Shown: positions 2,886 through 19,707, counted from the first letter of the stretch. The stretch is DNA of 64,000 nucleotides from Candidatus Bathyarchaeota archaeon (GCA_963775685.1 CAVZJV010000014.1:192001-256000), one strand, 5' to 3'. The notes: generated from the sequence alone by a model not told the origin. Translations and numbers: made by a program.

Positions 2886-2922
2886 GACAGGGAAAAACCA
2901 ATTTCTTTTTTCTTTTTTATTG

Positions 2923-3342
2923 TTAATTTTTGAGTGTTGGCAACCTTACTATATGTAGGCTTACTCCCAAAGCTATTAGTAGCAGAGCAACTTGCGCTAT
3001 GAAAATCTCGTCTAAAGCAAAAAAGGCAGAATAAATTATCCCAGTCCAAAGAACCGTCATCGCCAAGATTTTTGTTTTCAATGGAATCCCCCGTCCTTCT
3101 TGGTAATTTCTTATGTATTCTCCAAACCAACTGTTTCCCAGAAGCCACTTATGCATACGTTCTGAACTTCTTAAGTAGCAGGTGGCAGATAGCAGAAGGA
3201 AGGGAGTTGTTGGCAAAATGGGCAGAAATATTCCGATTGCACCTAAAGTAAGTGAAATTGTGCCTGCAACAAGTAACAATGCTCTGACTAGTTTGTGTTT
3301 CCTGTTCTTTTGTGCATTAATGTGCTCAATCGTGTTTTTCAT
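2923..3342 (-). CDS. YbaN/DUF454 family membrane protein
   Basis: GIFLPILPTTPFLLL...RSSERMHKWL signature. Confidence 0.9.
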   Translation of the reverse strand: MKNTIEHINAQKNRKHKLVRALLLVAGTISLTLGAIGIFLPILPTTPFLLLSATCYLRSSERMHKWLLGNSWFGEYIRNYQEGRGIPLKTKILAMTVLWTGIIYSAFFALDEIFIAQVALLLIALGVSLHIVRLPTLKN

Positions 3343-3459
3343 CGCTGTCTCGTTGCTTTAAACGCTTATCGTTAATAAAAAACATGCGTTACTTTGTTTA
3401 TGGATGGAATTTTTATAACTAACCTCAACCAACATAGGTATCCTAAACGGTAGAGCAGC

Positions 3460-4308
3460 ATGGACAAACTTGGCGGCTTCATAAAGTTAATGCGACCAGT
3501 CAACTGCACAATGATGGGTTTAGCCGTCGTTGTAGGCGCTGTTCTTGCCTCTCCTCATTTGGACGACCTTAACTGGCAAAGCATCCTGTTCGGGTTCCTA
3601 ACTGGATTTACCTTCTGTGCAGCTGCCATGGTGATCAACGACTATTATGATCGCAAAATCGATGCCATTAACGAGCCCCAGCGCCCCATTCCAAGCGGTA
3701 CAATAAAGCCTCAAGAAGCTTTGATATTTGTCGGGTTTCTTGCTGCAGTTGGCTTTGTCTTTGCTGGATTGGTTAGTGTTCTATGTTTTGCTGTAGCAGC
3801 AGCGTCTTTGGTGATAACTGCAACTTACATTACTGTAGGCAAACGGAGTGGGTTGCCTGGAAACTTTTTAGTCAGCATTTGTGTTGCTATCCCTTTCATT
3901 TATGGTAGCATAACTGTCCTGGGAGCAGTTGGGTTAAATGTGCTGTTGTTTGCATTCATGGCTTTTCTCTCTAATACGGGCAGGGAAATAACCAAGGGGA
4001 TTGTGGATGTGAAGGGTGACAGCGCTGAAGGCGTTAAAACAATCGCAGTGAGGTTCGGAGAAAAGAATGCGGCTTTTGTGGCGGTGGTATTCTTTGTTTT
4101 TGCTGTTGCCTTAACGCCTGTTACGTGGTTTCTGGGGTTAGTTGGCGTATGGTTTATTCCATTTGTTTTAGTCACAGATATTGGGCTAATTGTGTGCTCG
4201 TTACTGTTGCTCTTGGATCATTCACGGGAAAAAGCACGAAAAATCAAGAAAGTTGTTCTGTATCTGTTCTTGATGGGTTTGCTCGCGTATATCTTTGGGG
4301 TTATTTAA
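3460..4308 (+). CDS. UbiA-family prenyltransferase, probably digeranylgeranylglyceryl phosphate synthase
   Basis: RPVN, NDYYDRKIDAINEPQRPIPSG and REITKGIVDVKGD motifs; multiple TM helices. Confidence 0.85.
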   Translation: MDKLGGFIKLMRPVNCTMMGLAVVVGAVLASPHLDDLNWQSILFGFLTGFTFCAAAMVINDYYDRKIDAINEPQRPIPSGTIKPQEALIFVGFLAAVGFVFAGLVSVLCFAVAAASLVITATYITVGKRSGLPGNFLVSICVAIPFIYGSITVLGAVGLNVLLFAFMAFLSNTGREITKGIVDVKGDSAEGVKTIAVRFGEKNAAFVAVVFFVFAVALTPVTWFLGLVGVWFIPFVLVTDIGLIVCSLLLLLDHSREKARKIKKVVLYLFLMGLLAYIFGVI

Positions 4309-4322
4309 ATACATGAAGGCAA

Positions 4323-5003
4323 TTAGGCATGTGTGGGTGAACCGCATTTCTTGCAAAATGAAGCTTTGTTTTTATTCTCAGCTCCGCAAGAACTGCAAAT
4401 TAACCCGGCGTAATTGTTAATTTCATCTTTTATTTTCATGCCGCAACGTTCGCAGAATAATGCGTCAGAGTCATTTTTTGAACCACAGTATTTACAGTTG
4501 AGAGTATTTGATTCTTCTTGGGGAGTCCTCAATCCTGAATTGCCTAATATTGAGGTTTTACCTTTCAGCATTTCGAAAGTTGGCAAGAAATCTAATAGTT
4601 GCATAAACTGTTCTTGATTTGGCGCAAATTTTGAAACACACTCTTCGCTTAAAATAATAAACTTTGGTTTCTTTCCTGAAATTAGTTTGACTTCTTCTAT
4701 TTCTTCGTATGTGTAAAAGCAGCTTTTTTTGCTGAGTTCTAGTTTTTTGTTAAGAGGTAAACTGTTGATTTCTTCTTCCATCTTTTGTCGGTTGATCTGT
4801 TTATCGTTGGTATTAGGCAAGGCGGTCGGTGCAATCCCATAGAGTGAAGAAGGATACCCATCTATATGCTCGAAACGACTGCTGTGTCCCATACAAACGA
4901 TTGCAATACGCTTGTCAGTAAAAACGACATCATACCGCGTGGGATTATCGAGCGGTAACAGAATATCCTTAATAACTCCAAGTTGGCGTTCAGAATCTGG
5001 CAT
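4323..5003 (-). CDS. Double zinc-ribbon domain protein
   Basis: C-terminal CKYCG..FCERCG and CSSCG..FCKKCG. ATG at 5003 preferred as start. Confidence 0.7.
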   Translation of the reverse strand: MPDSERQLGVIKDILLPLDNPTRYDVVFTDKRIAIVCMGHSSRFEHIDGYPSSLYGIAPTALPNTNDKQINRQKMEEEINSLPLNKKLELSKKSCFYTYEEIEEVKLISGKKPKFIILSEECVSKFAPNQEQFMQLLDFLPTFEMLKGKTSILGNSGLRTPQEESNTLNCKYCGSKNDSDALFCERCGMKIKDEINNYAGLICSSCGAENKNKASFCKKCGSPTHA

Positions 5004-5238
5004 GGTTAAAAGCCTCAATACAATATTGCCTATTTACTTTTTTAAGCTTTATGAGATTGGACCATTAACTTACTCTTCTACTCTACTGACATCCGAAGGC
5101 TGGTGTATTGGACGTAACCCGGCTTTGGCTTAGTAATTTTCTACTACTTTCCCTCATTGTTATCCCTGATGTCTTGATACTGAATATCTAGTTATAAATT
5201 TTAAGGATTATCGTTCTATAAAATCAATTAAAAAACTG

Positions 5239-5366
5239 TTAGCATCCCTTTTTGAATTCATTTCCACATTTGTTACAACTGTAAACTTCCAAGCAGAAGT
5301 AAGAGTTCGCTATTTTTCTTTCTGGCTTAGATACACCATTTCCGCATTTGGGGCACAGGCAAGCAC
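5239..5366 (-). CDS. Small CPxCG...CxxCG zinc-ribbon protein (not in ORF track; start uncertain)
   Basis: Manual translation: CPKCGNGVSKPERKIANSYFCLEVYSCNKCGNEFKKGC*. The GTG at 5366 is out of frame, suggesting an indel. Confidence 0.5.
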
Positions 5367-5536
5367 TGAGATACCTTTAAATCTAGAATATTTAGAAAAA
5401 TATGGTTTCTATAAAAAGTATTGTTGTCACAACGGAAAAAACAAAAGTTCGTTTTCTGGCTAAACTAAGTTTCAACGGTTCTTTCTTTGAACGTACCAAA
5501 GAGGTTATATGGTAAACCCCCAAATATACGCTATAC

Positions 5537-5765
5537 GTGACCTTCTTGGATAGACTTGAAGCAATGGCGATGCTAAAACAGTTGATGGATAGCGATTTAG
5601 TCGAACCTTCTTATGTTTCAATGGTTCAAGTAAAGCCTAACCAATTCCAGATTCAAATTAAGTGTGATTACAATAAGCAACAGATACACGAATTTTCAAA
5701 AAAAAAATGGCTTAACCATAACAGAAGATAAAGACCCAAAATACTTTGTTATCTTTAAACCATAG
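5537..5765 (+). CDS. Small hypothetical protein, frameshifted in an A10 run
   Basis: Removing one A at ~5698-5707 extends the frame as ...FSKKNGLTITEDKDPKYFVIFKP*. Confidence 0.5.
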
Positions 5766-5820
5766 CTGTCCAACTCTAAGTGTGCAGGATGACTTTGAAT
5801 AGCTGTATTCTAAACTTTTC

Positions 5821-5944
5821 TTCGCAAGGTTTTCTTTCCCATACAAAACTGTCCGAAAAAAATTTTCGTTTAAATTTCTATGTTCGCAAGGTTTTCTTTC
5901 CCATACAAAACTATCCGAAAAAAACTTTCGGTTAAATTTCTATG
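5821..5944. repeat. Tandem 62-bp direct repeat, 2 copies (59/62 identical)
   Basis: 5821-5882 and 5883-5944, TTCGCAAGGTTTTCTTTCCCATACAAAACT...AAATTTCTATG. Confidence 0.95.
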
Positions 5945-6023
5945 TATATATCTGTATATCAACAGATTGGTGATTTCCCCACCCTTGCCAATCAAACCCC
6001 TTTTTCTTTTTTTGGAGGCTTCT

Positions 6024-6224
6024 ATGTTAAGTGAAGCCGAGTTTACGGTTTCGGGTTTTAAATCGCGTAAGCATGAATACCGAGCCGACAAGGGTAAAAA
6101 ACATAGTTATCCAGAGCAGAGAGCAGCGCCCTATACGTATTGTAGTAAGAGGCGTTTAGGGAAGCGGAACGACAAAAACCAAATTCCTATTTACTATTAT
6201 TTACCGCGCGGAAGCTACGCTTAA
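6024..6224 (+). CDS. Small basic hypothetical protein
   Basis: GGAGG Shine-Dalgarno (SD) site just before ATG 6024; K/R-rich, 66 aa. Confidence 0.5.
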   Translation: MLSEAEFTVSGFKSRKHEYRADKGKKHSYPEQRAAPYTYCSKRRLGKRNDKNQIPIYYYLPRGSYA

Positions 6225-6246
6225 AGAAAAGGTTCGTGGATTTATC

Positions 6247-6558
6247 TCAGTCAAGAAGTCCTCTTTCCACTCTGTAATTACGACCTTTTTTCTTCTGCAT
6301 CTTCTTCTGTAACGGTCTCATAGGCGCTTTTTTGGATGCTTTAGATTCAACATAAAGATGTTCTCTTCCTTTAACAGCATCAAAATCGTATCCGGTTTTC
6401 CTAGTCGTTGTAGTGTAACCAGCCATAGCATATTTTACTTCATCAAGTTTCTGTTTGCCTAAACCAATTTCTCTATTTTGATTAACCCGAATCCTTTTTG
6501 CCACTTTGCTTGGGTTAGAGCGCTTCTTTTTTCTTCTTTTTTGAACCAAACAAATCAA
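6247..6558 (-). CDS. Small basic PD-(D/E)XK nuclease-like protein (DUF3883/Hjc-like)
   Basis: GY....GYDFDAVKG....YVESKA pattern followed by a 'MRPLQ' helix. Confidence 0.6.
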   Translation of the reverse strand: MICLVQKRRKKKRSNPSKVAKRIRVNQNREIGLGKQKLDEVKYAMAGYTTTTRKTGYDFDAVKGREHLYVESKASKKAPMRPLQKKMQKKKGRNYRVERGLLD

Positions 6559-6766
6559 AGTCGATGCTCATAATAACGCTTCTATATCTTAGAGATTTTG
6601 TTTATAACTCTTGCTATTAAAAGGTCACTTGTAATCGAAAGAAGACTGAAAAAAAACTAAAAGCCTAATAATAGAACATACTCTCTTTTTCTTTTTTTGG
6701 AGGCTTTTTAGTTGTTTAGCGAATTAACCAAAGCTTAAGAGTGCTATCAGTAGACAACAGTTAACG

Positions 6767-7051
6767 GTGAATAAAATGGAACTGGGAAAGGAACTAGAAG
6801 AGTATGTTCGTTCTGTATGCACTAACATTCAAAATGGGATAACAGACGGGCTGATGCTTGATGGTGCGATAGAGTTTGAGTTAGCAGTTGTAAACACAAA
6901 AGAGGTTGGCGGGGGTTTGAAGCTATTTGTTTTGGATGCAAGAGGTGACTACAGCAAAGAGGAAATCAGTAAAATCAAGTTCAAAATCGCTAAAAAACCT
7001 CGACCCCCGAAAGTGGGGGGTGGGTCTGTGCCGAGTCTGTTCGATAGATAA
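6767..7051 (+). CDS. Trypsin-co-occurring (Trypco2)-like small protein
   Basis: LEEYVRSV..I..G...IEFELAV..TKE.GGGLKLFVL...S.IKFKI pattern. Confidence 0.55.
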   Translation: MNKMELGKELEEYVRSVCTNIQNGITDGLMLDGAIEFELAVVNTKEVGGGLKLFVLDARGDYSKEEISKIKFKIAKKPRPPKVGGGSVPSLFDR

Positions 7052-7079
7052 TTCTCTTCTTCTATTTTTCTAATTTAAT

Positions 7080-7197
7080 GTCCATGAAGTCAATTTTCTT
7101 AGAAGTATTCTGTATTAGGATTATCCACTTGTTTTTGCCTTCAATTGTTATTCCACAGCTTCGCTTGGGGTTTTGCCGTCTAAGGCTTCATGCGGTC
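7080..7197 (-). pseudogene. C-terminal remnant of an archaeal DDE (IS6-like) transposase
   Basis: Manual translation across one frameshift: PHEALDGKTPSEA/CGITIEGKNKWIILIQN. Confidence 0.65.
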
Positions 7198-7334
7198 AAA
7201 GAAAGCGTATGTTTAGAAAAAGCAGCTCAACCGAAGGAAAACAAATAGACAATTGTTTAGATTGACTACTGCTATTGGAATTTATCCTTAAACCCTTCAA
7301 GCGGTAAAATGACTGTGAGGCTGAAGAGTAGAGA

Positions 7335-7511
7335 ATGAAGCCAAAAGTCACAAAGAAAAAACGTGCTAAAATCTTAATGACTGAATTGGAATTGGCAAAC
7401 AGTGCCTTACTAAATGAGCAGCTCTACAAGGACCTAGGCGCTTACAAGGAACATAAGAAACTGCAAAGACAAATTCATCAACGTCAAGGCTGGATGGAGT
7501 ACATCCGATAA
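7335..7511 (+). CDS. 58-aa basic hypothetical protein (not in ORF track)
   Basis: MKPKVTKKKRAKILMTEL...WMEYIR*; TAATG overlap with the next ORF. Confidence 0.55.
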   Translation: MKPKVTKKKRAKILMTELELANSALLNEQLYKDLGAYKEHKKLQRQIHQRQGWMEYIR

Positions 7512-7675
7512 TGAGACGCATTTTCTATGTTATGCGTCAATCCACAGTAACCCGATGCAACAACCCAGAATCCCCAGTTTGCCATGTCTTAATCAAAAAG
7601 GGCGACATAGTTTTTGTTTCTGCAACCGGAAAAATCAAGCATCAAACCTGCTATGAGAGGTGCCTTATTGACTAA
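7511..7675 (+). CDS. 54-aa Cys/His zinc-finger-like protein (not in ORF track)
   Basis: MRRIFY...RCNNPESPVCHVLIKKGD...KHQTCYERCLID*; overlaps neighbours at both ends. Confidence 0.55.
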   Translation: MRRIFYVMRQSTVTRCNNPESPVCHVLIKKGDIVFVSATGKIKHQTCYERCLID

Positions 7676-7970
7676 CCCCGCAAACAAGTGGGCTAAACAC
7701 CGCAAACCCGATTTAATCCGTAAAGTTTTCCCTAGCAAACATGGCTGTCAACACCGAGGATGCAAAGAAAAACGCGTAAGCAAACTTCAATTCGCACACA
7801 CCAAACAAACCCCTTTAAGCCGCACAGGTCCACGCGGCAGAAAAGAAAAATTCGCAGACATCAACAAGCATCCAGAAGCCTACAAAGTTGAATGCCATAA
7901 ACACCATTTAACCGATAAAGCCCCTGCGAAACATGACGCAAGAATGCGGCGCTTAGGGAAGCGAAGGTGA
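7668..7970 (+). CDS. HNH-like (His-Me finger) basic protein
   Basis: C-x4-C...LQFAH...YKVECHKHH arrangement; GAGGTG SD before TTG 7668. Confidence 0.55.
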   Translation: MTNPANKWAKHRKPDLIRKVFPSKHGCQHRGCKEKRVSKLQFAHTKQTPLSRTGPRGRKEKFADINKHPEAYKVECHKHHLTDKAPAKHDARMRRLGKRR

Positions 7971-8043
7971 TTGTATGGCAAGACAAAAAATAAGAATTCA
8001 ACAAGCAAGAAAAAAGAAACCCTACTATTAAGGAGAAAACAAA

Positions 8044-8532
8044 ATGCGACCTCGAATAAGTCAAGATGAAGCGCAATACATTGTATCTCTACTAGATGTA
8101 AGTAGCTATGTTCTAACAGAAAAAGAAAAAGAGATAAATCGTTTATCAGTTGAGGTAAAGCAGCTTCGAGATATGATTTTATTAGACACATACAAAGCAA
8201 GCCAAGTTTTTAAAATCCGAGAGAAAAAAGAACGTCTAAAAAAATTGGAAATACTAAAGTTTAATCTCTATTCAAATATTGAACTTCACATAAAACTTAG
8301 AGAAAAATACCTGGCTATCGCAGAAAACAAACCCCATGACGGCCGCTATAAATCCTTGTCAACAAAAAAGCGTTTTAGATATACGGATTCTAAGTCTTTA
8401 ACTTCTTTAGCGTTGACTGATACCTCAATTAATGCAGAGGAAGAAAAACAAATCTCGGAATATTACGAGAAATATATTAGAGGTCATGTTCCAAACAAAA
8501 AGTTCTTGGGTGGAATAGGAGTTTTCAGATGA
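8044..8532 (+). CDS. Hypothetical coiled-coil protein
   Basis: GGAG SD; 162 aa, K/E/L-rich. Confidence 0.65.
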   Translation: MRPRISQDEAQYIVSLLDVSSYVLTEKEKEINRLSVEVKQLRDMILLDTYKASQVFKIREKKERLKKLEILKFNLYSNIELHIKLREKYLAIAENKPHDGRYKSLSTKKRFRYTDSKSLTSLALTDTSINAEEEKQISEYYEKYIRGHVPNKKFLGGIGVFR

Positions 8533-8630
8533 AATTAATTAAAAGAATTAGCTTTAATTGTTTTTTATTATTTGGTAATTCAAAGTTAATTATCTATGGA
8601 AAAAAACTAATTAGGAGTAATTAGAAAAAA

Positions 8631-9338
8631 ATGCAGGAATACCATAGATTAAATGTTTATGATTATGTTAACGAGTTTTGCGGTTGGGCCGCCTTAGAAG
8701 AATTAACAAAGTACGCAGGTTCTCCAAGAAACGAATTATATCTATTAGGTTTGATTAAAACAAGTGGCAGAGCTACAGAGGTTTTATGCCTTGAAAAAGA
8801 AAACTTTAATGTTATTCCTAAAAAGAAATACATCTTAGTTCAAAACATGAAACTTGAAAAGCGGTGGCGCAAAGTAAAGCTGCAGGATGGTTCAAGCGTA
8901 AGAGAACACATGGAAGCAATAAGAAAACCTTTCCCAGTATTATTGAAAGAACCATTAAGTCAAGAGCTTTTAGAACATTTAGAAGCAAGCAAAGACGGTG
9001 GTTTATTTGTTAGCCCATACAAAGCGCATAAACCATTAACGCGAGATTGGGGCTATAAGCTGATACGAAGAATAAATGATGATATTCCAAGATCGCTGTT
9101 CAATCGGTTGGGCTTGAATATTACGTTTAGGGATAGAGTAACGCAGGCAGCTACAGCAGACATGATTCATTTATGGCAACATTGGTTTAGAAGTAAAAGA
9201 GCCAGCCAGCTAAGAGCCGAATATGATTTTAGTGAACCCGACTTAATGGAGTTCTTTGGTTGGCTTGACTATAAGACAGCTCTGCATTATAGCAAGTTGG
9301 GCGCGTCTAACTTAGCTAAAAAGATGCTAAAAGCCTAA
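8631..9338 (+). CDS. Minimal tyrosine recombinase (catalytic domain only)
   Basis: TSGRATE (R), LEK (K), HWFR (HxxR), FFGW and HY catalytic residues; 235 aa. Confidence 0.85.
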   Translation: MQEYHRLNVYDYVNEFCGWAALEELTKYAGSPRNELYLLGLIKTSGRATEVLCLEKENFNVIPKKKYILVQNMKLEKRWRKVKLQDGSSVREHMEAIRKPFPVLLKEPLSQELLEHLEASKDGGLFVSPYKAHKPLTRDWGYKLIRRINDDIPRSLFNRLGLNITFRDRVTQAATADMIHLWQHWFRSKRASQLRAEYDFSEPDLMEFFGWLDYKTALHYSKLGASNLAKKMLKA

Positions 9339-10034
9339 CCTTAGAAACCTTGTTTTCCTTGTTTTACTAGGGATAATTATTTAATCATACTAAATAGAGA
9401 TAGAATTAGGCTCTTTAAACTCTATTTAATGTTGATTATTCCATAGAGATGAAAGGAATAATTAACATGGTACTAAACCAAAAGGAGCGCAATCTATTCT
9501 TTATTTGTATCCTAATTAATTTATATACGTGGAAACCCCCGTTTTTTAAGGGTTTGCGGTACCAAAAATAAAAAAAAGATAGGTTTAATGCGGCTTCATT
9601 AAGCATACACGGCTTTGCGTAGCTTACTAACCACATACCTATAAGGCATGTCCAGCCATTCATAAACGCGGTGTACAAGCACCAAGATATAGATAAGTAC
9701 CTTAGCCCACTTTGACAGCACATGTTTAGAAGCTGGTAAGTTGAATAAGTTACAGCTACAATAACGCGCACTGTTAAAGTCTATGTGTTTATGATAGCCA
9801 AATCTACATCTATAAAAACGGTTGGCTTTAGTGCTAAGTTTCTCTTTACGCAGCCCTTACAGTTAACGCATACCCAATCTTGCTTCGCGCCGAACGGTCG
9901 ATCAGCGTCAGCTCCCCAATTAGCCTGTTTAAGCATCTCACTTGAAGATTGAGTTAATGTGCGAACCTCAAAAAACAACTTTGCAGCTTTGAGGGTATAT
10001 GGTTAAATTTAAAAAATCTCTTTAATATTGCTAA

Positions 10035-10550
10035 TCATTCTTTAGCAGCTTCCTTCTCTGCATCCAACATTATAACAAGCGCAAGTTTACCTTCACGCGG
10101 TTTTAGTCCGAAGAAAGCCTTTAGAAATCTTAGAGCAACACCGCTAAGTATAGCTTCGACCTTTTTCTCAAAAATCTCTCTAGGTTGATCGTGAGGGTTT
10201 GTTATGAAAGCAGCGACTAAAAATTTTCCATCAGTTTTATATTTATAAACCGGCTTAGGAATACTTTTGATAAATCTTATTGCTTCATACTTTCCAAGTT
10301 GTGTTTCAACATCTTTAGCATTTTCCGCTTTTATTCTATACCATTGGCTTCTTCTATCCCCAGCCTTATCAAAATGTTCAATTTTTCCTTGTGATTCTAA
10401 TAGCTTGACGTATTCTGCTTAGTCTGTTGGTTCCGATACGTGTAATCCTTCTCTTAATTGTTTGAAATTTAGCTCTTTACGCTTTGTGAGCAAAGATTGA
10501 AGTTTTAAAAGGTTATCGTTACGGTCATTTTTTGCCCAGATGTTTGTCAA
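10035..10550 (-). CDS. Winged-HTH (MarR/ArsR-like) regulator with an in-frame TAA at 10419-10421 (error or pseudogene)
   Basis: AGGTGA SD + TTG 10550. Manual translation: LNFKQLREGLHVSEPTD*AEYVKLLESQGKIEH...DRRSQWYRI, open to TGA 10035. Confidence 0.7.
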
Positions 10551-10557
10551 ATCATCA

Positions 10558-10597
10558 CCTAAGTTACTTAACTTATCCTAAGCTATTATATATATTT
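10558..10597. promoter_or_regulatory. Divergent promoter with palindromic operator candidate
   Basis: TAAGTTA-CT-TAACTTA (10560-10575) next to TTATATATATTT, between head-to-head regulators. Confidence 0.5.
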
Positions 10598-10616
10598 TAT
10601 CACAATATTGTTAGCC

Positions 10617-10853
10617 ATGCCAATCTTAAGGAAAATATTGAATGTTGGCGATAGCCAAGCCGTAACACTTCCAAAGTCATGGCTACGGACCGCAGAAGAA
10701 GCAGAAGGAAAAAAAGCCATAGCCGTTGCAATGGAAGTTGACGGATCAATTACCCTAAACCCTGTTTTTGAAAAAGAACAAAAGGCTGGAGTGACCCCCC
10801 GAGAAGGAAACCACGCCAGCCAGCAACCCCGGAGGATTGCCAATAATGAATAA
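10617..10853 (+). CDS. AbrB/MazE/SpoVT-family DNA-binding protein
   Basis: RKILNVGDSQAVTLPKSW signature. Confidence 0.85.
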   Translation: MPILRKILNVGDSQAVTLPKSWLRTAEEAEGKKAIAVAMEVDGSITLNPVFEKEQKAGVTPREGNHASQQPRRIANNE

Positions 10854-11080
10854 TTCTTATTCTACACTTAAGAATTTTGCTACTACGCGACCAACAGCAA
10901 GCCGTTTTGTAATAGTAGCAAAAATCTATCTGAGCAACAGCAAAAAAACCGTCAAGATTCTTGACTTAGACGGTCGCCTTTTAGGCATCGCATTACGCAA
11001 CGAAATTTCTAGATCTTTTAGCTGGAAAAGTCAGCCATGTAAACGTAGTTAAACCCCAACATGGAGCGCCAACACAATGA
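10846..11080 (+). CDS. Hypothetical protein, probably frameshifted near 11005
   Basis: Alternative frame ILDLLAGKVSHVNVVKP...TQ* ends in an ATGA overlap with the primase start. Confidence 0.45.
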
Positions 11081-12042
11081 ACTCCGAGCTATTAAGCGCG
11101 ATCTACGCATATCACGACATAGGATTAGCCATTATTCCATTCTACATAAACAAAGAAGGAAAAAAACGACCAAACTTAGACGAAGGCGAAAAATGGGAGC
11201 AATGGCAAACACAGCCACAAACAAAAGCAGAATTAGAAAAGTACATACCCCGCATACTTGAAAAAGAATTATTCGGAATTGTCACCGGAACACCTATCCA
11301 AGTTGACGGAGAAACCTATTATTACCAAATCATAGACCGCGACATAAAAGACCCTGATTTAACCGAGGAAATCAAAGAGAAAAGCAAACAAGCCATAAAC
11401 TTAATGCGAACAACTAAAACCATAAGAACCCTCAGCGGCGGCGACCACTTAGATTATTATAGCCGAACCCAAAGCAAAGGCAAAAAACTAAACAAAGTAG
11501 GCATGGAATTTTTAGCTACCGGGAACTTGTGTGTAATGCCACCTAGTAAAGGCTATTCACTTGTCAACGATAATTTACCCGCTATCGTTGATAACGTCGA
11601 AGATATGTTTTTTGATTGTATAGAAAAAGCTGGACTAGCCACCCAACAATTAACCACAAAAACACTAAAAGCCTTAGAAACACCCAAAACCTACAGAAAA
11701 AAGAATTTGCGCCCATGCTTCTTAAAACTGATGGAAAAGGACCACCTAGAACACTTAGAAAAAGTTGCTTTAATTTATGAATTGTATTTTTGCGGCAGAA
11801 CCGACCAAGAAATAGCGGAGTTATTCCATGAACACCAAGCATGGGAACCAGCGCCAAGACACCATTACAACCAAATAGAAACAGACAAAGCAATACAAAC
11901 CACCTTAGACTATGCCAAAAAAGACTATTTCAGATATAAGAAAGAAACCTTAGCAGGCTTAGGGATATGTAGCGCAACTTGTGAATATATCCAAGAACCC
12001 GATTGCCGCGAAAAATCAAGAAACAGTCAACCGACAACATAA
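11077..12042 (+). CDS. Bifunctional primase-polymerase (Prim-Pol) domain plus PriL-CTD-like Cys-containing region
   Basis: GLAIIPF, KRP..W..WQ, GIVTG, DRD, TLSGGDH and VMPPS motifs; then RPCF..H.EK..L and CxxxC. Confidence 0.8.
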   Translation: MNSELLSAIYAYHDIGLAIIPFYINKEGKKRPNLDEGEKWEQWQTQPQTKAELEKYIPRILEKELFGIVTGTPIQVDGETYYYQIIDRDIKDPDLTEEIKEKSKQAINLMRTTKTIRTLSGGDHLDYYSRTQSKGKKLNKVGMEFLATGNLCVMPPSKGYSLVNDNLPAIVDNVEDMFFDCIEKAGLATQQLTTKTLKALETPKTYRKKNLRPCFLKLMEKDHLEHLEKVALIYELYFCGRTDQEIAELFHEHQAWEPAPRHHYNQIETDKAIQTTLDYAKKDYFRYKKETLAGLGICSATCEYIQEPDCREKSRNSQPTT

Positions 12043-13628
12043 ACCCAATAGCAGATATAGCCAAGATCATTGAGAAAAAATACAGTTTTGCAGTAGAAAA
12101 AAACACAGAGATCCTTTATGTATTTGACACCGAGCAAGGCATCTATACAAGTAAAACAGAGCCACTAATCAACACTGAAATCTGTATCTTACTGGATGAT
12201 GAAACCCGCGTTAAATACTTCAAAGATGTTGACAACTGGATAAGAAGCAACCCAAAAACGCCAAGAGTAGAATTTAATGCCGACACAAACATAATAGCAG
12301 TTAAAAACGGAATATTGCATTTAGACACCAAAACTTTAGAGCAAATTGGGCCGCAATTCTACCTAACAAACAAGATACCACACAACTTTAAACCAAACGC
12401 AGAATGTCAACCAATAAAAGACTTCTTAGCTGTATCAATGCCAAACGAGAAACACCGCCTACAACACCAAGAATTTTTAGGCAAAATCATAGGCAGAGAA
12501 AACCACCATTTCCACGAATACGGAATAATGCAAGGTGAGGGAAATAATGGCAAATCAGTCTTAATTGACATAGACACCTACTTTTTAGGAAAAGACAACA
12601 TAAGCAGCCAAACACTACAATCCTTAATTTATGACAAATTCGCAACTGCCAAACTAAAAGATAAATTTGCCAATTTTTGCGCAGACCTACCTAGTACAAT
12701 GCTTAAACACATGGGAACAATAAACATGATTGCAGCAGGCGACCGCATAACCTCACAAAACAAATATGGCGATCCGTTCGACTGGAAACCAAACTTAGGC
12801 ATGATGTTTAGCTGTAACGAAGCCCCAGCCATAGACCCCTCAGAGGACCACACAGGCACTTATAGACGCATCTTGATATGGGATTTCCCAGTGACGTTTA
12901 GCCCGAATGACCCCGACCCAACACACCGCGAAGATAAAATGCTTAGGGATAAGCTGATGAATGAAGATCTTTTGGAGGGCTATCTCAACTATGCTATCGA
13001 AGGCTTAGAACGCCTAAAAACACAAGAAGATTTTACCGCAAAGTTAGCACCACAAGAAACCCGAATAGCATACATTAAACGATCAAATAGCCCACAAGCC
13101 TTTATAATGGAATGTTGCCAAGACACCGACGACGAGAACGACATAGTATTTGCAGACGACCTTTTTAGAATGTATATAGCGTATTGCGTAGCCAAAAAAC
13201 TAACAAGACGAACCAAAGGAGAACTAACAAAAGCATTATACAACTATGCCCCAGGCGCGGAAAAAACAAAAGCTAAAAAAGACCCTGAAAATAAGCAATC
13301 CCCCAGAGTTTATGCGTTTAGATTCCTAAAAGTGCCTAACTTGGACAACTTGGACAACCACTTTTCAAAAGTATTAAAAAATAATTCTCAACAACAAAAA
13401 ATAAAAGTTTTAGAAAATGGTTGTCCATCTTATCCATCTGAGACAAAAAAATTGGCGCTAGGGGAAAACCGAACTTGTTTTCCTGAATGTAAAAACTATC
13501 ATCAAGCGGCTTGTGAAAAAGAGAATTATGGAATGTTACTACCTAACACTTCTATTTTTGGTTGTAAGAGTTTTGCAGCTCATAACGAAGAGAGGAGGTT
13601 TTCCAATAATGGAAGCCCAAACCGTTAA
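12003..13628 (+). CDS. D5/P4-family SF3 helicase, probably fused to the upstream Prim-Pol
   Basis: D5_N-like IAVKNGIL, Walker A GEGNNGKS, FSCNEAP, YRRILI. Confidence 0.85.
   Translation: MPRKIKKQSTDNINPIADIAKIIEKKYSFAVEKNTEILYVFDTEQGIYTSKTEPLINTEICILLDDETRVKYFKDVDNWIRSNPKTPRVEFNADTNIIAVKNGILHLDTKTLEQIGPQFYLTNKIPHNFKPNAECQPIKDFLAVSMPNEKHRLQHQEFLGKIIGRENHHFHEYGIMQGEGNNGKSVLIDIDTYFLGKDNISSQTLQSLIYDKFATAKLKDKFANFCADLPSTMLKHMGTINMIAAGDRITSQNKYGDPFDWKPNLGMMFSCNEAPAIDPSEDHTGTYRRILIWDFPVTFSPNDPDPTHREDKMLRDKLMNEDLLEGYLNYAIEGLERLKTQEDFTAKLAPQETRIAYIKRSNSPQAFIMECCQDTDDENDIVFADDLFRMYIAYCVAKKLTRRTKGELTKALYNYAPGAEKTKAKKDPENKQSPRVYAFRFLKVPNLDNLDNHFSKVLKNNSQQQKIKVLENGCPSYPSETKKLALGENRTCFPECKNYHQAACEKENYGMLLPNTSIFGCKSFAAHNEERRFSNNGSPNR
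13338..13436. repeat. Inverted iteron-like repeats around an AT-rich core (putative ori)
   Basis: AACTTGGAC x2 + AACCACTTTTC ... GAAAATGGTTGTCCATCTTATCCA, with an A/T-rich spacer at 13367-13412. Confidence 0.6.
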
Positions 13629-14776
13629 GGTTGTTTGCCCCGAATGTGGCAGCAAGAGTTTTCAAAGATGGCTTTAGGGAAGCACCTTTAAACTCTGCTT
13701 CAATTGAGCCAATTCAACGCTACCGATGTGCAGATTACGGTCACCGCTGGAGCGAACACATTGTTTTAAATACTGTCAAAGCCAATAAAGAAACTAACCA
13801 TTTCAGCGCATCCGGAGCGAAAAAAATGGTTTCCATGCAAAAAACAAAAATTTGCATGGGTGAGGAAAGAACACCAACCGCTAACGAAATTAAAGCAGCC
13901 CCACATATTGAACGGTTAGCAACCCAACTATTCAACGATGGCAGAGACAAATTAACAATACGGAACTATCGCACATACTTATCGTATCTTTTAATCAACG
14001 GCGCAGACTTGTTTGATCCCGAAAGCACAAAAGCAGTCTTAGCAAAGCTACCTATGAAGAAAAACACAAAACGCCTAATCGTCAGCTTACTTAAAACCTG
14101 GTATGAATTCCACAATATAATGTGGAAAGCGCCAATATACAACCGAGACAACGAAATACCCTATATTCCAACTGAAGCAGAGTTAAATGAGCTTATAGCT
14201 GGATTAGGAAAAGTACTTGCTTGTTTCTGCTCAATTTTCAAAGATACAGGTGCAAGAAGTGGCGAGATTGCGCGGTTAACATTGAAAGACATTGACTTTA
14301 ACACGCATACTATCAACATCAAAGGTGAGAAACGCAGCAACGGCCGAATTCTACCACTGACAGAAAGAACCCTTTGCACGTTAACCAATCTGAAACGTAG
14401 AAAAGACGGAAAAATCTTTAGTAGCGTAGTAAGCCTAAGAAGCAACTTCAATATTTCACGGAATAAAATCGCGGAAAAAATCGGAAACCCCAACATCTTA
14501 AAGGTTCATTTCCATACTTTCAGACATTGGAAAGCAACAACTGAGCTTCATAACTACCATGACCGCGAGAGAGTACAAATAATACTAGGGCATAAAAGCG
14601 CAGATTCAACAGAAACTTATGTTCACATTGACAAAATGCTATATCTTAACTCAGGAACGGACCAGTTTGTTTGCAAGGTTGCTGATACCTTGGAAGAAGC
14701 GTTAAAGCTGATTGAAGTCGGCTATGAGTTTCACGTTGAGATGCAGGGGCATAAAATATTTCGGAAGCGGAAGTAA
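13609..14776 (+). CDS. Tyrosine integrase with N-terminal zinc ribbon (frameshift near 13655)
   Basis: GGAGG + ATG 13609 gives MEAQTVKVVCPECGSK/RVFKDG..QRYRC. TGARSGE, HTFRH, LGH and TY motifs; ends FRKRK. Confidence 0.9.
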
Positions 14777-14880
14777 CATGCAGAAATTGCTAACATACCG
14801 ATTTTTACGTATATATATCTGCATGTTAACAAGTATTAAGTACTCCATGCCGCTGAATCAATATTCAAGAGGATATTTAC

Positions 14881-15528
14881 ATGTCTGAACGTTTCGCAAA
14901 GAAATGGGAACAAAAAAGAGAAGGGGACTCATTAAGTAAAACATTGCTTAACACAATCCAGCCGGCTCCAGCACTAAAAACCGCTTTAGACCATGCTTGC
15001 AGAAAACTAGACTTGCAAATCAACAAATTAGACCAAGCAAATGAACGCTTCACACAAAAAGACAAAGCCCTGTTCGCCAAAATCGTTGACGCCTACACTA
15101 AACATGATACTGCACATGCAAACATTTACTCAACCGAATTAGCTGAAATCCGAAAAATGTCAAAACTAATCATGAACGCAAGACTGGCACTAGACCAAGT
15201 AGCACTAAGAATACGTACAGTGTCAGAACTAGGCGATGTAGTAGCTGCACTAGGACCATGCGTTGGGGTTCTACGCAGCGTCAGCACAGGATTAGGCGGA
15301 GTTTTGCCCGAAGCAGAAGGCGAACTAGGCGACATCGGCAACATGCTAAGTGGTTTAATGCTCGAAGCAGGCTCAAGCGGCGGAATGTCACTCAACTTTG
15401 ACTCAGTAAACGAAGATGCCTCAAAAATTCTGTGCGAAGCAGCAACAGTAGCAGAGCAAAGAGTCAGTGCAAACTTCCCCGATCTACCCCCTGGAATGCC
15501 CGGAGCATCCAACAAATCAAAAGCTTAA
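14881..15528 (+). CDS. cdvB: ESCRT-III / Snf7-domain cell-division protein CdvB homologue
   Basis: Snf7 helical core (A.IY..ELAEIRK...L.QV.LR..T..ELGD); C-terminal FPDLP MIM2-like motif. Confidence 0.85.
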   Translation: MSERFAKKWEQKREGDSLSKTLLNTIQPAPALKTALDHACRKLDLQINKLDQANERFTQKDKALFAKIVDAYTKHDTAHANIYSTELAEIRKMSKLIMNARLALDQVALRIRTVSELGDVVAALGPCVGVLRSVSTGLGGVLPEAEGELGDIGNMLSGLMLEAGSSGGMSLNFDSVNEDASKILCEAATVAEQRVSANFPDLPPGMPGASNKSKA

Positions 15529-15845
15529 GCTTAAGGGTCCTTGCTTTGTGTTTTCGCAGAGGAATTCACTGCAATCAAAGCAGTGTGTCACGGCTTTGGT
15601 ATAAGCGCAGTTAAGCTTAAACAAACCTTCCCCTTTCATCATTTTTTATTTTTTAATTTTAAAATCTGAAAATTTATAGAGACCCTATTTCTTTTATAAA
15701 ATTCAATTTATGAATTATCTGATCTAAACATTGCTTAGTTGCTTAAAACATAAACTGTGCAATGTCGATTAAGTTGAAAGAACAACTGTTCTAATGATTG
15801 GACTTATATTTACCCTACAAACTCATTAGGGCTGAGGTTACGCGG

Positions 15846-16292
15846 TTGAATGGGGACAGCGAAACAGAGCTTGAATACTCACTACGCGGCAAGGCCTGGA
15901 AGGTCTACTGGTTCCTGCTGAAAACAGGGAGCTCAGTTGGAGTCCGCGAAGTTCAGCGGGCTTTACATTTTAGCAGTCCCAGTATAGCTTTTCATCACCT
16001 TGAGCAGCTGCGGGAGTTGGGATTGGTTGAAAAGCAAAATGTCGGCGGCCACTACATATTGGTTGGCCAAGTAAAAATCGGCGTTCTACGCCATTATGTA
16101 AAGTTGGGCAAACTCTTGTTTCCACGTTTCTTCTTCTACGCCCTGTTCTCAAGTATATTCTACGCAGCTTATCTGCTGATAATCGTTCACAGTTTAAGCA
16201 GGGATAACCTGTACATCATTTCCTTTGGTGCCATAGTCTGCGCAGTTTTTTGGTATGAGGCTTATCGTGTGTGGGAAATGAGGCCATTCTAA
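15846..16292 (+). CDS. wHTH regulator with two C-terminal TM helices
   Basis: GVREVQRALHFSSPSIAFHHLEQL HTH; GAGGT SD before TTG 15846. Confidence 0.8.
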   Translation: MNGDSETELEYSLRGKAWKVYWFLLKTGSSVGVREVQRALHFSSPSIAFHHLEQLRELGLVEKQNVGGHYILVGQVKIGVLRHYVKLGKLLFPRFFFYALFSSIFYAAYLLIIVHSLSRDNLYIISFGAIVCAVFWYEAYRVWEMRPF

Positions 16293-16341
16293 ATGTTAGA
16301 ACAGGCTGTTCGTGGGCTTAGCATAAAATAGAAACTCGCCT

Positions 16342-18363
16342 ATGTATGTCAAGGAGATAAACAGTATGGTTCAGAAAGAAGTTAGAAAAAAAACTAAAAT
16401 TTACGGAACAGTAGCAGTGCTCTCAGCTATCGTGCTAGTTTCTATGGTTTATGCGTTCGGCACCTCCCCGACAATTTTGCCATTCAACCAACCGGTCACT
16501 GTTTCAGGCATGAAGACGTTTCCATCGATGGAGGTACTCCAAGATTACTTGAACACAACTTCGGTAAGTAGTCTACCAGAAATGTATTGGGGGCGTCCAA
16601 TGGTTACTACTTCATCGCCAACTGCGGCAGCACCGGGCATCTATGGAGTCAACAACGATTATTCCTCCACAAACATCCAAGTTGCAGGGGTAGATGAGGC
16701 TGACACGGTAAAAACAGACGGAAAATACATCTACACCATTTCTACAACTCAGAACAGCTTGTTTTATAATTCTGGATATGGTTCACAAACCAGTAACAAC
16801 GTATACATTATAAGTGCCGACCCGCAAAGCGCCAAAGTAATCTCAAGAATCACCCTTGATAATGACTTAAGCCCTGATGGGCTGTTCCTTAACCAAGATA
16901 GCACAAGACTCATCGTTATTTCAAGCAAATACCAATCATACTCTGCTGCCTCAAATGGTATCATGATTATGCCCTACTACAGCGATGTCTCAACATCCCT
17001 ATACGTGTATGACGTTTCAAACAAGGCATCTCCGGTTTTGGATAGAAACGTTACTGTTAGTGGAAGTTACTTTAATTCCCGCATGATAGGCAATTATATT
17101 TATGCAGTTACTAGCCAAAATGCCTACGTATTTAATGGTGCCGTGACAGTTCCAGCCGTTTACAAAGAAGGAATAGCTTATGCCGCTTCGCCCACAAGCA
17201 TCTACTACGCTGACATGAACCAATCCTACAGCTACTCATTCACCAGCTTCTATGGCATCGATGTGGCAGACAACCAACAGCAACCCACAAACATGACGGT
17301 TCTAATGAGCGGCGCAAGCACAATGTATGTTTCACCAGATAACATCTATGTGGCCTATCCAAACTGGGTTAACGGCAGCGATGTCACATCCATTTATAGA
17401 GTAAAAATCGACGGTTTACAATTGACTTTGGAAGCTCAAGGAGGTGTTCTAGGCTACACCATAAACCAGTATGCAATGGACGAATACAATGACAACCTGC
17501 GAATAGCAACCAACATGCAAAGAATAGACCCAGGCAAACCCTTTATGGGCACAGAACAAGGTACACAAGTCAACAATGTCTATGTGCTCAATCAGAACCT
17601 GTCTTTAGTAGGCAAATTGGAAGGGCTAGCGCAGGGCGAGAACCTCCATTCAGTCCGCTTTATGGGCGACAAATGCTACCTTGTAACTTTCATTAGAACC
17701 GACCCTTTGTTCGTCATCGACCTTAGTCAACCAACAAACCCCATAGTGCTAGGCGAACTCAAAATCCCCGGCTACAGCGACTACCTGCACCCCTATGACG
17801 AGACACATTTAATTGGAGTCGGCAAAGAAACCGTTGAAGCACAGGAACAAGATTTCGCTTGGTACCAAGGCATAAAGCTATCTCTCTTTGACGTAAGCAA
17901 CGTAAATAGCCCTATTCAGCTGGCAAATTTCACAATTGGCGACAGAGGCACAGACTCTCCAGTCTTAACAGAACCCAAAGCTTTCCTGTTTGATAAGACA
18001 AAAAATCTGCTGGTGATCCCAATAAGTTTGGCATTGGTGGATAACTCTACGCTTCAAGAGTTTCAAAAATATGGTCAATCGGCGGCGTCTGCTTATGGCA
18101 CAACGGTTTGGCAAGGCGCTTATGTCTTCAGCCTCTCCGTGGACGGCGGCTTTACTCTGAAAGGTACCATAACACATATAGACCCAATATTGCTAAACAG
18201 CGAGGGATACCTAATCGACAACGTAGATTACTGGAACACCCAAAACCAATGGATCACAAGGTCGTTCTACATTGGCAATACGATATACACAATATCCAAT
18301 GCAGAAGTCAAACTCAACAGCCTTACCGACATGACCCAAATTGCCCAAGTTAGCCTCCAATAA
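16342..18363 (+). CDS. Secreted beta-propeller domain protein (COG4880-like)
   Basis: YSSTNIQVAGVDEADTVKTDG, DPLFVIDLS, GELKIPGYSDYLHP. Confidence 0.9.
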   Translation: MYVKEINSMVQKEVRKKTKIYGTVAVLSAIVLVSMVYAFGTSPTILPFNQPVTVSGMKTFPSMEVLQDYLNTTSVSSLPEMYWGRPMVTTSSPTAAAPGIYGVNNDYSSTNIQVAGVDEADTVKTDGKYIYTISTTQNSLFYNSGYGSQTSNNVYIISADPQSAKVISRITLDNDLSPDGLFLNQDSTRLIVISSKYQSYSAASNGIMIMPYYSDVSTSLYVYDVSNKASPVLDRNVTVSGSYFNSRMIGNYIYAVTSQNAYVFNGAVTVPAVYKEGIAYAASPTSIYYADMNQSYSYSFTSFYGIDVADNQQQPTNMTVLMSGASTMYVSPDNIYVAYPNWVNGSDVTSIYRVKIDGLQLTLEAQGGVLGYTINQYAMDEYNDNLRIATNMQRIDPGKPFMGTEQGTQVNNVYVLNQNLSLVGKLEGLAQGENLHSVRFMGDKCYLVTFIRTDPLFVIDLSQPTNPIVLGELKIPGYSDYLHPYDETHLIGVGKETVEAQEQDFAWYQGIKLSLFDVSNVNSPIQLANFTIGDRGTDSPVLTEPKAFLFDKTKNLLVIPISLALVDNSTLQEFQKYGQSAASAYGTTVWQGAYVFSLSVDGGFTLKGTITHIDPILLNSEGYLIDNVDYWNTQNQWITRSFYIGNTIYTISNAEVKLNSLTDMTQIAQVSLQ

Positions 18364-18519: not shown

Positions 18520-19707
18520 TTAGGTTATGGTTTGGTTCCAGTAGAAGACTTCAGTATAATTCTTCAGCAATGAAGCAATCACTTTCGGGTCGTCATAGAG
18601 AATGTCAAAGCGGGAACCATACTTGACCGGGAGAACTATGTTTGTGTCGCTGAAAATTTTTGAAGATAGTTCATCTGGCGGTTTTAAACCCCAGATGGTA
18701 TCGGTGGCTCTTCGGAAGCCAAATCCGTAGTCTTTAGGCACTATGTAGGCGACTTCAGCTTTGTTTGAGCCTAAACTGGCGGGGTTACTGTGGAGTGTTT
18801 TCCAGAATTTTTGCAGCGCCTCAAAATGCTCATCCTGTAAGGTGCCATATTGGTTGTTAACCGGGTATGTCGGATAACTAAAGACTATTCCATACTTGAC
18901 TCCAGCACTGTAAGCTAACGATAGATCAGCATAAAGTTCATTTCCAGATTCAAGGTATGGGGAATGATTGTATTTCCAGTCAATTATGGCACCCCAATCC
19001 CGGTCTGAAGCTTGGGCGGCTCCCCTATCAAGTGCTATGATGCGTTCTCTGCTTTCATTGCCGACAAACTCAGCGTAGATTGAGGTATAGTTTGAATTGT
19101 AGTCAAACCAGAATAGTCCGTAGTCTGAAGTTGAGAGGTTAACATGGCCTAAATTTTTGTAAAAGTTTACCATGTAACTTAGGTTACCCACGTAGTTGTC
19201 TGCTATGGCGCTGTAGCTTGCATCAGGGCTGATTACGGTCTCGTTGATTAGTTGCGATGGCGTGTTATCTATTTGGTTTCCTCCAGGTTCATCATACTTA
19301 TAGATTTCTAGGAGCCTATCGCCGTACCTATCTTTTGCTTCAAACATCCACTGAACAATGTTATAAGTGTAGTAATTTCCGCCCGTGAATAAAATGATAA
19401 AGTTCAGTTTAGAATTATTGTAGATGAAATCGCATGCCTCATTCAAAGCCGTCTGGTTGAAAGTCAAGCTCACATCACCCATCACTAACAAGTTCGTGTA
19501 ATCCTTAACTCTGTTTACTAAAGCTTGAATTTGGGATATCTGGAATTCTGCAGTTTGGTTGTTACCATAAGCGTATTCGACGCCTACGTAGAATGGCCTC
19601 CCCGGAGTTTGGGTTTGGTCACTGAACGCGTTTAGGGCTATAATTAGCGATAAGACAATAAGCACAATGAGAATAGAGGCGAATACGACGGGAAGTTTGC
19701 GGTTCAA
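18520..19707 (-). CDS. Membrane-anchored hypothetical protein
   Basis: 395-aa ORF, N-terminal TM helix, YDEPGG motif. Confidence 0.7.
   Translation of the reverse strand: MNRKLPVVFASILIVLIVLSLIIALNAFSDQTQTPGRPFYVGVEYAYGNNQTAEFQISQIQALVNRVKDYTNLLVMGDVSLTFNQTALNEACDFIYNNSKLNFIILFTGGNYYTYNIVQWMFEAKDRYGDRLLEIYKYDEPGGNQIDNTPSQLINETVISPDASYSAIADNYVGNLSYMVNFYKNLGHVNLSTSDYGLFWFDYNSNYTSIYAEFVGNESRERIIALDRGAAQASDRDWGAIIDWKYNHSPYLESGNELYADLSLAYSAGVKYGIVFSYPTYPVNNQYGTLQDEHFEALQKFWKTLHSNPASLGSNKAEVAYIVPKDYGFGFRRATDTIWGLKPPDELSSKIFSDTNIVLPVKYGSRFDILYDDPKVIASLLKNYTEVFYWNQTIT

Follow-up and report, generated by a model that had tools for sequence, protein, structure and literature searches.

The window, a stretch of 64,000 nucleotides from a Candidatus Bathyarchaeota archaeon (GCA_963775685.1 CAVZJV010000014.1:192001-256000), contains an insertion of 8.9 kb at positions 5945-14831, next to the gene for the division protein CdvB. 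This insertion is very probably a plasmid-like replicon of the integrative type, a Bathyarchaeia 'cryptic integrated element'. It represents a new family of an already known kind of element and is probably inactive in the source genome (G000, 3.06 Mb in 14 contigs, where the window is G000:C14:192001-256000). A prediction made earlier from the sequence alone had proposed a capsid-less element at 5821-14831 with two tyrosine recombinases, either an integrative replicon or a virus satellite. The integrated capsid-less replicon has stood up well, and the satellite has not.

Related genomes carry the same locus without this DNA. In G010, whose cdvB is 91% identical, the zinc-ribbon gene on the left of the locus lies 186 bp from cdvB on the same contig. 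The same interval is 1.1 kb in G001, and in G012 the UbiA gene abuts cdvB. When window positions 2501-17000 were compared by blastn with the G010 and G001 loci, homology stopped at 5060/5061 and resumed at 14812; the DNA between these limits measures 63 bp in G010, and in G001 it is an unrelated 992 bp. No integrase homologue was found at any of 11 congener cdvB loci, taken with 1.5 kb on each side, and the element has a GC content of 38.3% compared with 42.4% for the genome. The original prediction had suggested looking for an empty site in relatives and held that synteny conserved in all of them would speak against a mobile element. The empty site was found in G010, and with G001 and G012, where other fillers occupy the locus, it contradicts conserved synteny.

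A single insertion spanning 5061-14811 was considered and rejected in favour of 5945-14831, because the latter has the repeat, a host-type flank at its left attachment site (attL) and left-arm homology to relatives that starts just inside the core in three contexts. The predicted right end, 14831, is the exact end of the right attachment site (attR). The predicted left end, 5821, was 124 nt too far to the left, as a 62-nt tandem duplication at 5821-5944 sits outside the repeat, on the host side.

The two attachment sites form an imperfect 20-nt direct repeat in which 17 of 20 positions are identical (repeat finder), a score reached in none of 300 shuffles. An 11-nt sequence at 5944-5954, GTATATATCTG, matches attR at 10 of 11 positions, and the 17 nt of TTCTATGTATATATCTG at attL recur unchanged in the G001 empty site. 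At attR the flank is element-type on the left and host on the right, and both ends of the element match the ends of relatives. We regard the position of the att copies as a stronger argument than the repeat statistics. In G103 (L073, C5 9929-10195) an uninterrupted stretch runs from the last 30 nt of an integrase gene through right arm, core and left arm to a degenerate left-end gene, with no element protein within 10 kb; judged by sequence, this would be the order expected of attP, the attachment site of a circular form, or of a tandem-copy junction.

The core lies within a motif, TATATAT..CATGTTAGCAA..ATTAA, that all 11 congeners examined have kept some 60 nt ahead of the cdvB start codon, and this is a conserved promoter region. 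It follows that the target is the cdvB promoter, which answers the 'missing tRNA target' of the original prediction: ARAGORN finds no tRNA in the window, and what had been noted as unusual is real. The att repeat lies about 35-55 nt beyond the integrase stop codon (14776), and the integrase open reading frame (ORF) stays contiguous with the element.

The gene order is as originally described: small cargo genes, a minimal recombinase and a leftward winged helix-turn-helix (wHTH) regulator, then, rightward, an AbrB-like gene, a hypothetical gene, PrimPol, helicase and integrase (Table 1). The integrase matches Phage_integrase (PF00589) with E 5e-18, above the Pfam cut-off. Archaeal XerA structures match its residues 90-335 (E 4.5e-13), and the R, HxxR, H and Y positions coincide. 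The first CPxC knuckle of the zinc ribbon begins all seven integrase relatives; in the window the predicted zinc ribbon is split by a 2-nt deletion, visible as a 2-nt gap near 13654 in a DNA alignment with two relatives. That the integrase closes the replication operon had been thought unusual. It is real and a family trait, as an integrase also directly follows the helicase match in L051, L056, G003/L041 and G014/L083.

PrimPol and helicase had been predicted as separate genes. The domains are there, and they belong to a single gene, which a frameshift at about 12009-12027, next to an A5 run, has divided. The helicase matches D5_N (E 2.6e-9) and DUF5906 (E 1.3e-15) above the Pfam cut-offs, as expected of the predicted D5 helicase. 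The PrimPol match (E 4.5e-4) falls below, and so does that of the AbrB/MazE-like protein (E 9.5e-4), although PrimPol is also 53% identical to the N-terminal part of its G100 orthologue, a single fused primase-helicase of 844 amino acids (aa) whose helicase part is 67% identical. The replicase is fused in five relatives (G100, G038, G003, L051 and L056). AbrB homologues precede the replicase in G003/L041 and occur in L059, and homologues of the 71-aa ORF that follows are found in L056 and L057. The leftward wHTH gene is present as predicted, with its frame broken by a stop codon; its homologues span residues 3-166, and four of the five are uninterrupted. The 'ori-like repeats' of the prediction are 2.3 copies of a 9-nt unit and an inverted repeat that is 73% complementary. 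Both lie inside the helicase ORF, and we rejected them as evidence of an origin.

The second tyrosine recombinase of the original prediction has also been borne out. The 235-aa protein has no Pfam match and none in a profile search of the PDB, and its residues 22-234 match PHROG integrase families (E 2.9e-5 and 2.4e-4). An AlphaFold 2 model (pLDDT 84.1, pTM 0.82) places Tn1549 integrase, XerA, XerH, Cre and the HP1/P2 integrases at the top of the Foldseek matches listed, four of them at E<=1e-3 with TM-scores of only 0.40-0.47. R47, H184, R187, W211 and Y220 are invariant in 20 aligned homologues. Among its 42 database relatives, itself included, 11 carry the JGI label 'integrase' and two PF00589. 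Sequence and model agree that the protein is a divergent tyrosine recombinase.

This recombinase marks a family of Bathyarchaeia elements of roughly 8-11 kb that share one gene order. Scanning with an alignment of the recombinase found four loci in genome contigs and eight in metagenome contigs, with no relatives in IMG/VR viral contigs. Ten loci were compared (L060 and L062, too short or too weak, were excluded; L054 and L055 are near-duplicates). An integrase homologue is present in five of the ten (31-35% identical) and a helicase in four (26-49%), and the small recombinase is 61-75% identical across the compared loci. As it is far more conserved than either the integrase or the replicase, the comparison may point to a second, family-wide recombination reaction on a conserved site, which might be resolution, inversion or a switch.

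Two relatives have defined ends. The element at L051 is 8.0 kb long, has the same recombinase-regulator-replicase-integrase order, and is bounded by an exact repeat of 17 nt (E 1.6e-4) extending over the 5' end of a tRNA-His gene. That of G102:C2 (L075, 4202-13354) is 9.15 kb long and bounded by an 11-nt TATA-like repeat, with its attR 54 nt before a 448-aa gene. It has the left-end gene, the block of 58-aa, 54-aa and HNH-like genes (88% DNA identity) and a 58%-identical integrase, and is without replicase and small recombinase. At L056 the order is HNH-like gene, recombinase, leftward genes, 71-aa ORF, a fused 949-aa replicase and integrase. The integrase stop codon lies 84 nt before the 5' end of tRNA-Val in G014 and 43 nt before a P-loop kinase gene in G076; a search for att repeats of these two elements yielded nothing beyond 10-nt matches at chance level, and in G076 the contig is not long enough.

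The helicase and the small recombinase each occur once in G000, where the integrase has 14 weaker matches that are at most 38% identical. A helicase match occurs in 12 genomes of a 61-genome draw from the genus, G000 included, at no more than 35% identity; the fused replicase of G100 was found apart from that count. A search of genome contigs with the helicase alone gave 19 pattern matches, none of which was confirmed.

Three genes of the element are damaged: the wHTH gene by its stop codon, the replicase by its frameshift and the integrase zinc ribbon by its 2-nt deletion. The original prediction had implied a working element. Because of these lesions, the copy in G000 is probably immobilised, locked in the chromosome and decaying. 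Decay is rather more probable than artefact as their cause, because a nonsense substitution and a 2-nt deletion are atypical of homopolymer errors.

We envisage the following history. In a circular form, attP would have separated the 3' end of the integrase gene from the small left-end gene. The XerA-like zinc-ribbon integrase would have recombined attP with the TATA-rich motif in the conserved cdvB promoter, leaving a 10-20-nt repeat at each end and a reconstituted copy of the promoter ahead of cdvB. Outside the chromosome the element may have copied itself with the fused PrimPol-superfamily-3-helicase replicase, presumably expressed from the operon that opens with the AbrB-like gene and faces the divergent wHTH regulator. 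The minimal second recombinase most likely has its site within the element, where it might, for instance, resolve multimers.

Several points weigh against reading the insertion as such a replicon. The 884 bp at 5061-5944, outside the repeat, are also missing from G010 and are unaccounted for. The exact core is only 10 nt, and of 300 shuffles 30 gave a 10-nt match by chance; at three of 20 positions the att copies disagree. The roles in replication and regulation are predicted from sequence, with PrimPol and AbrB matches that lie below Pfam cut-offs, and a site for the second recombinase was not located. Next to one of the frameshifts is an A5 run, and a fourth lesion, outside the element, lies in an A8 run, which could mean assembly error.

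No structural, packaging or transfer family was recognised among the element proteins in Pfam or PHROGs, a search that left about eight ORFs without a family and was complemented by models of two proteins. Nor does any ORF have a transmembrane-type hydrophobic stretch at the usual threshold (maximum KD19 1.58, in the integrase). Such an absence, in a small element with a divergent regulator pair beside its replicase, would also suit a virus satellite mobilised by a Bathyarchaeia helper virus, in the manner of phage-inducible chromosomal islands (PICI), Staphylococcus aureus pathogenicity islands (SaPI) or Sulfolobus pSSVx/pSSVi. The 105-aa basic protein is of interest here. Its residues C32, C37, H49, C81, H84 and H85 are invariant, and homologues 50-89% identical occur at L053, L056, L057 and L075. 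It has no Pfam match and no PDB match in a profile search, and its ESM feature matches to viral HNH clusters score 0.94. HNH domains top the Foldseek and VIA-align lists, though weakly (E>=2, Z<=3.4), so that it is possibly a small HNH-type nuclease. Such proteins assist cos packaging, and tailed viruses have them; the element family may also consist of virus satellites that use it. Against this stand the weakness of the HNH assignment and a gene order unlike that of PICI, since the integrase lies at the distal end and points in the same direction as the replicase. The search recognised no gene for packaging, be it for a terminase, for capsid remodelling or for another such function, nor was a helper identified, and the recombinase family had no relatives in the IMG/VR viral contigs. 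We consider the satellite improbable, a possibility without positive evidence.

Still less probable is a small virus with its capsid protein among the unrecognised small ORFs. About eight ORFs have no family, the capsid proteins of many archaeal viruses escape sequence detection, and a size of 8-11 kb overlaps that of small archaeal viruses. However, spindle-type major capsid proteins are pairs of hydrophobic helices, according to the portion of the Bathyarchaeia virome study available (PMC10541130), and the lack of transmembrane-type segments argues against them. Spare ORFs are fewer still in the 8.0-kb relative L051, and no structural family of PHROGs was matched (two proteins modelled). That the element is what remains of a larger provirus after loss of its structural genes is very unlikely indeed: the lesions, the insertion sequence (IS) fragment and the duplicated leader with a truncated second left-end gene (6685-6740) suggest past rearrangement, but repeat-bounded relatives are of like size (L051, 8.0 kb; G102:C2, 9.15 kb), both ends match those of relatives, and the insertion fits between a single pair of att copies. 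The integrative replicon remains the reading that we prefer.

Table 1. Features of the element and of the adjoining host DNA, in window coordinates
Feature	Position	Strand	Remarks
UbiA gene	3460-4308		Left neighbour of the locus
Zinc-ribbon gene	4323-5018	-	Host side, left
Host-side variable spacer	5061-5944	.	Outside the element; absent from G010 (blastn homology limits); GC 34.2%
Small gene of a multicopy family	5537-5769 (ORF 5537-5731)		Frameshift in an A8 run; 72-aa paralogue on G000:C10
Tandem duplication, 62-nt unit	5821-5944		Two copies, 95% identity (TRF), perfect register; abuts the attL core
attL	5945-5964	+	Left copy of the imperfect 20-nt direct repeat; host-type flank TTCTATG on its left
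'Left-end' protein, 66 aa, basic	6024-6224	+	GGAGG ribosome-binding site; conserved upstream motif TTGGTGATTTCCCCAC
103-aa ORF, very basic (30% K+R)	6247-6558	-	No family match
94-aa ORF	6767-7051	+	Weak Trypco2-like match (Pfam E 1.8e-3, below cut-off)
3'-end fragment of an IS transposase gene	7107-7200	-	Relic of an IS within the element
Two small ORFs, 58 aa and 54 aa (Cys-rich motif)	7335-7675	+	Accompany the 105-aa gene
105-aa basic protein, possibly an HNH-type nuclease	7653-7970	+	Conserved across the element family
162-aa ORF	8044-8532	+	Adjoins the small recombinase in relatives; homologues in L053 (38%) and L059 (32%)
Minimal tyrosine recombinase, 235 aa	8631-9338	+	Most highly conserved gene in this family of elements
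About 700 bp without a convincing gene	9339-10037	.	Possible 65-aa Cys-rich ORF at 9781-9978, minus strand
Leftward wHTH regulator gene	10038-10550	-	In-frame TAA at 10419-10421 (translation)
Divergent control region, 57 bp	10551-10607		
AbrB/MazE-like gene (81 aa; 10608-10853) and 71-aa ORF	10608-11052	+	Open the rightward operon
Replicase	11077-13628	+	PrimPol (archaeo-eukaryotic primase, AEP) 11077-12042 and D5-type superfamily-3 helicase 12003-13628; two frames
Tyrosine integrase with N-terminal zinc ribbon	13609-14776	+	Main ORF 13631-14776; CPxC knuckle 13609-13677 out of frame
attR	14812-14831	+	Right copy of the repeat, the conserved cdvB promoter motif; empty-site homology resumes exactly here
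Host cdvB/ESCRT-III-like gene	14881-15528	+	Snf7 E 1.7e-4, below cut-off; its promoter is the target

The left-hand part of the element holds small genes. The left-end gene shows coding-type conservation in G102 (a 64-aa ORF), in G127 and in other copies, always just inside attL, and its product has no PHROG match. A 22-nt exact repeat at 6000-6021 and 6685-6706 comprises the leader and ribosome-binding site of this gene, and the second copy leads into a truncated start of it (6685-6740). The repeat may be the trace of an old rearrangement or of a tandem copy since lost. We had considered a tandem copy with a relic of the right arm inside the element and rejected it; the search turned up the 22-nt leader duplication alone, with nothing of the right arm. 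In G102:C13 (L074) the left-end gene region occurs as three copies or fragments within 20 kb (1016-1094, 16992-17047 and 18778-19042), a possible hot spot with several element relics.

Other cargo is shared with G102. The 94-aa ORF has a 94%-identical copy in G102:C13, and 7189-7949 is 88% identical in DNA to G102:C2. The cargo of the G102:C2 element includes three secreted proteins that share PSVPEFSWL...hydrophobic C-terminal tail, resembling a sorting signal. The 94 nt at 7107-7200 have sequences 80-90% identical in most of the congeners listed, one or two per genome; the counterparts in G013 and G049 are the 3' ends of ORFs of 379-381 aa that end ...PHEALDGKTPSEA..., and in G000 this transposase sequence occurs once, as the fragment itself. 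The 162-aa ORF has no Pfam, PHROG or usable ESM Atlas match. Between recombinase and wHTH gene, the 700 bp at 9339-10037 have no Rfam match near threshold and include a 72% DNA match to G114 at 9741-9898; they are a candidate for an origin or for a recombinase site.

About ten further zinc-ribbon integrase paralogues lie elsewhere in G000 (29-38% identical; for example at C14:1513577, 822993, 333949, 40578 and 41642, and at C4:41), some with internal stop codons, and the genome probably holds several other integrated elements. A k-mer scan found no CRISPR array in G000; its sole result was an intergenic 61-nt unit in three identical head-to-tail copies at G000:C14:438842-439025, a plain tandem repeat. 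Rfam gave two matches between 4500 and 15500, both at chance level.

On the host side, a cdvB match is present in 29 of the 30 other genomes searched (30 of 31 with G000). Each unit of the tandem duplication beside attL contains a 6-bp hairpin followed by a T-rich tail, and the duplication was not seen in other genomes. The frameshift in the A8 run of the small gene at 5537-5769 may reflect decay, or else an assembly error in the homopolymer. Upstream of the zinc-ribbon gene, a short sequence (5098-5205) has counterparts of 77-91% identity in many congeners and one further copy in G000 (C14:323646-323690); it could be a promoter, a small RNA or a repeat.

It is conceivable, and we put it forward only tentatively, that Bathyarchaeia harbour an undescribed family of integrative replicons of 8-11 kb, with non-suicidal integrases aimed at promoters or gene 5' ends (TATA-containing cores, the integrase gene reading into the target) and a universally kept minimal tyrosine recombinase. 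If this is true, a host gene, in the window the division gene cdvB, comes under upstream control by the element. The conserved promoter of an ESCRT-III division gene is an unusual target for tyrosine integrases, and the locus could allow one to ask whether such elements alter division-gene expression. As the copy in the window is damaged, its value lies mainly in defining the family and not as a working element. It is a cleanly bounded example with an empty site, and the 235-aa recombinase is a marker gene with which about 40 related sequences can be collected.

Mobile elements of Bathyarchaeia other than viruses have hardly been described. The accessible part of the Bathyarchaeia virome study covers four virus families and reports no integrated element of this kind (PMC10541130). 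Our literature search found no paper on integrative plasmids of Bathyarchaeia.

PICI and SaPI are bacterial elements of about 10 kb that have an integrase, divergent regulators and a primase-helicase replicon and lack a capsid gene. The window element resembles them in integrase, divergent regulators, primase-helicase, size of about 10 kb and the absence of a recognised capsid gene. It differs in gene order. What defines PICI and SaPI is a set of genes for packaging or capsid redirection, together with induction by a helper; in the element no such family (terS, cpm/ppi) was recognised in Pfam or PHROGs, with one weak HNH-like lead. Replicases of pRN1 type, which join AEP and superfamily-3 helicase, are reportedly those of archaeal plasmids. 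By description they share with the fused relatives an N-terminal PrimPol and a C-terminal superfamily-3 helicase in one protein; the window gene differs in being split by a frameshift and in having a helicase part of D5_N/DUF5906 type.

The plasmids pSSVi and pXZ1 have SSV-type integrases that split on integration and target tRNA genes, and pSSVi is a satellite of a fusellovirus. As small integrative archaeal plasmids without virion genes they resemble the window element, and the original prediction had likened it to them. The likeness does not extend to integration: compared by description, they have a split integrase and a tRNA target, whereas here the att site lies about 35-55 nt past the integrase stop codon, the integrase is unsplit and the target is a promoter.

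The pTN3-like plasmids of Thermococcales come closer in their choice of site. In the available sections of Badel et al. (2021; PMC8371274), the targeting of the 5' half of tRNA genes by pTN3-like integrases is described as unique in archaea, and pTN3-type integrases are called 'suicidal' because integration splits the int gene, as it does that of pSSVi. As far as these sections go, the likeness is that attB lies at the 5' side of the target gene, whose upstream context then comes from the element, and L051 likewise has its site at the 5' end of tRNA-His. The window element differs in that its att lies outside the integrase ORF and its target is the promoter of a protein gene, not a tRNA.

The closest described kind is the cryptic integrated element (CIE) of Thaumarchaeota. 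In the part of the survey by Krupovic et al. (2019; PMC6563490) available to us, CIEs have att repeats of 8-26 bp, are mostly smaller than 20 kb, carry no virion or conjugation genes and have no signature gene besides the integrase; 15 of 68 elements lie in intergenic regions, and replication proteins that join AEP and superfamily-3 helicase occur among thaumarchaeal integrated mobile genetic elements. Within the scope of that description, the window element resembles a CIE in its tyrosine integrase, its short att (10-20 nt here), its intergenic insertion, its AEP-superfamily-3 helicase and the absence of recognised virion or conjugation genes. It differs in coming from another archaeal class, in belonging to a family with a conserved small recombinase and left-end gene, and in targeting a promoter or gene 5' end with the integrase gene abutting the target.

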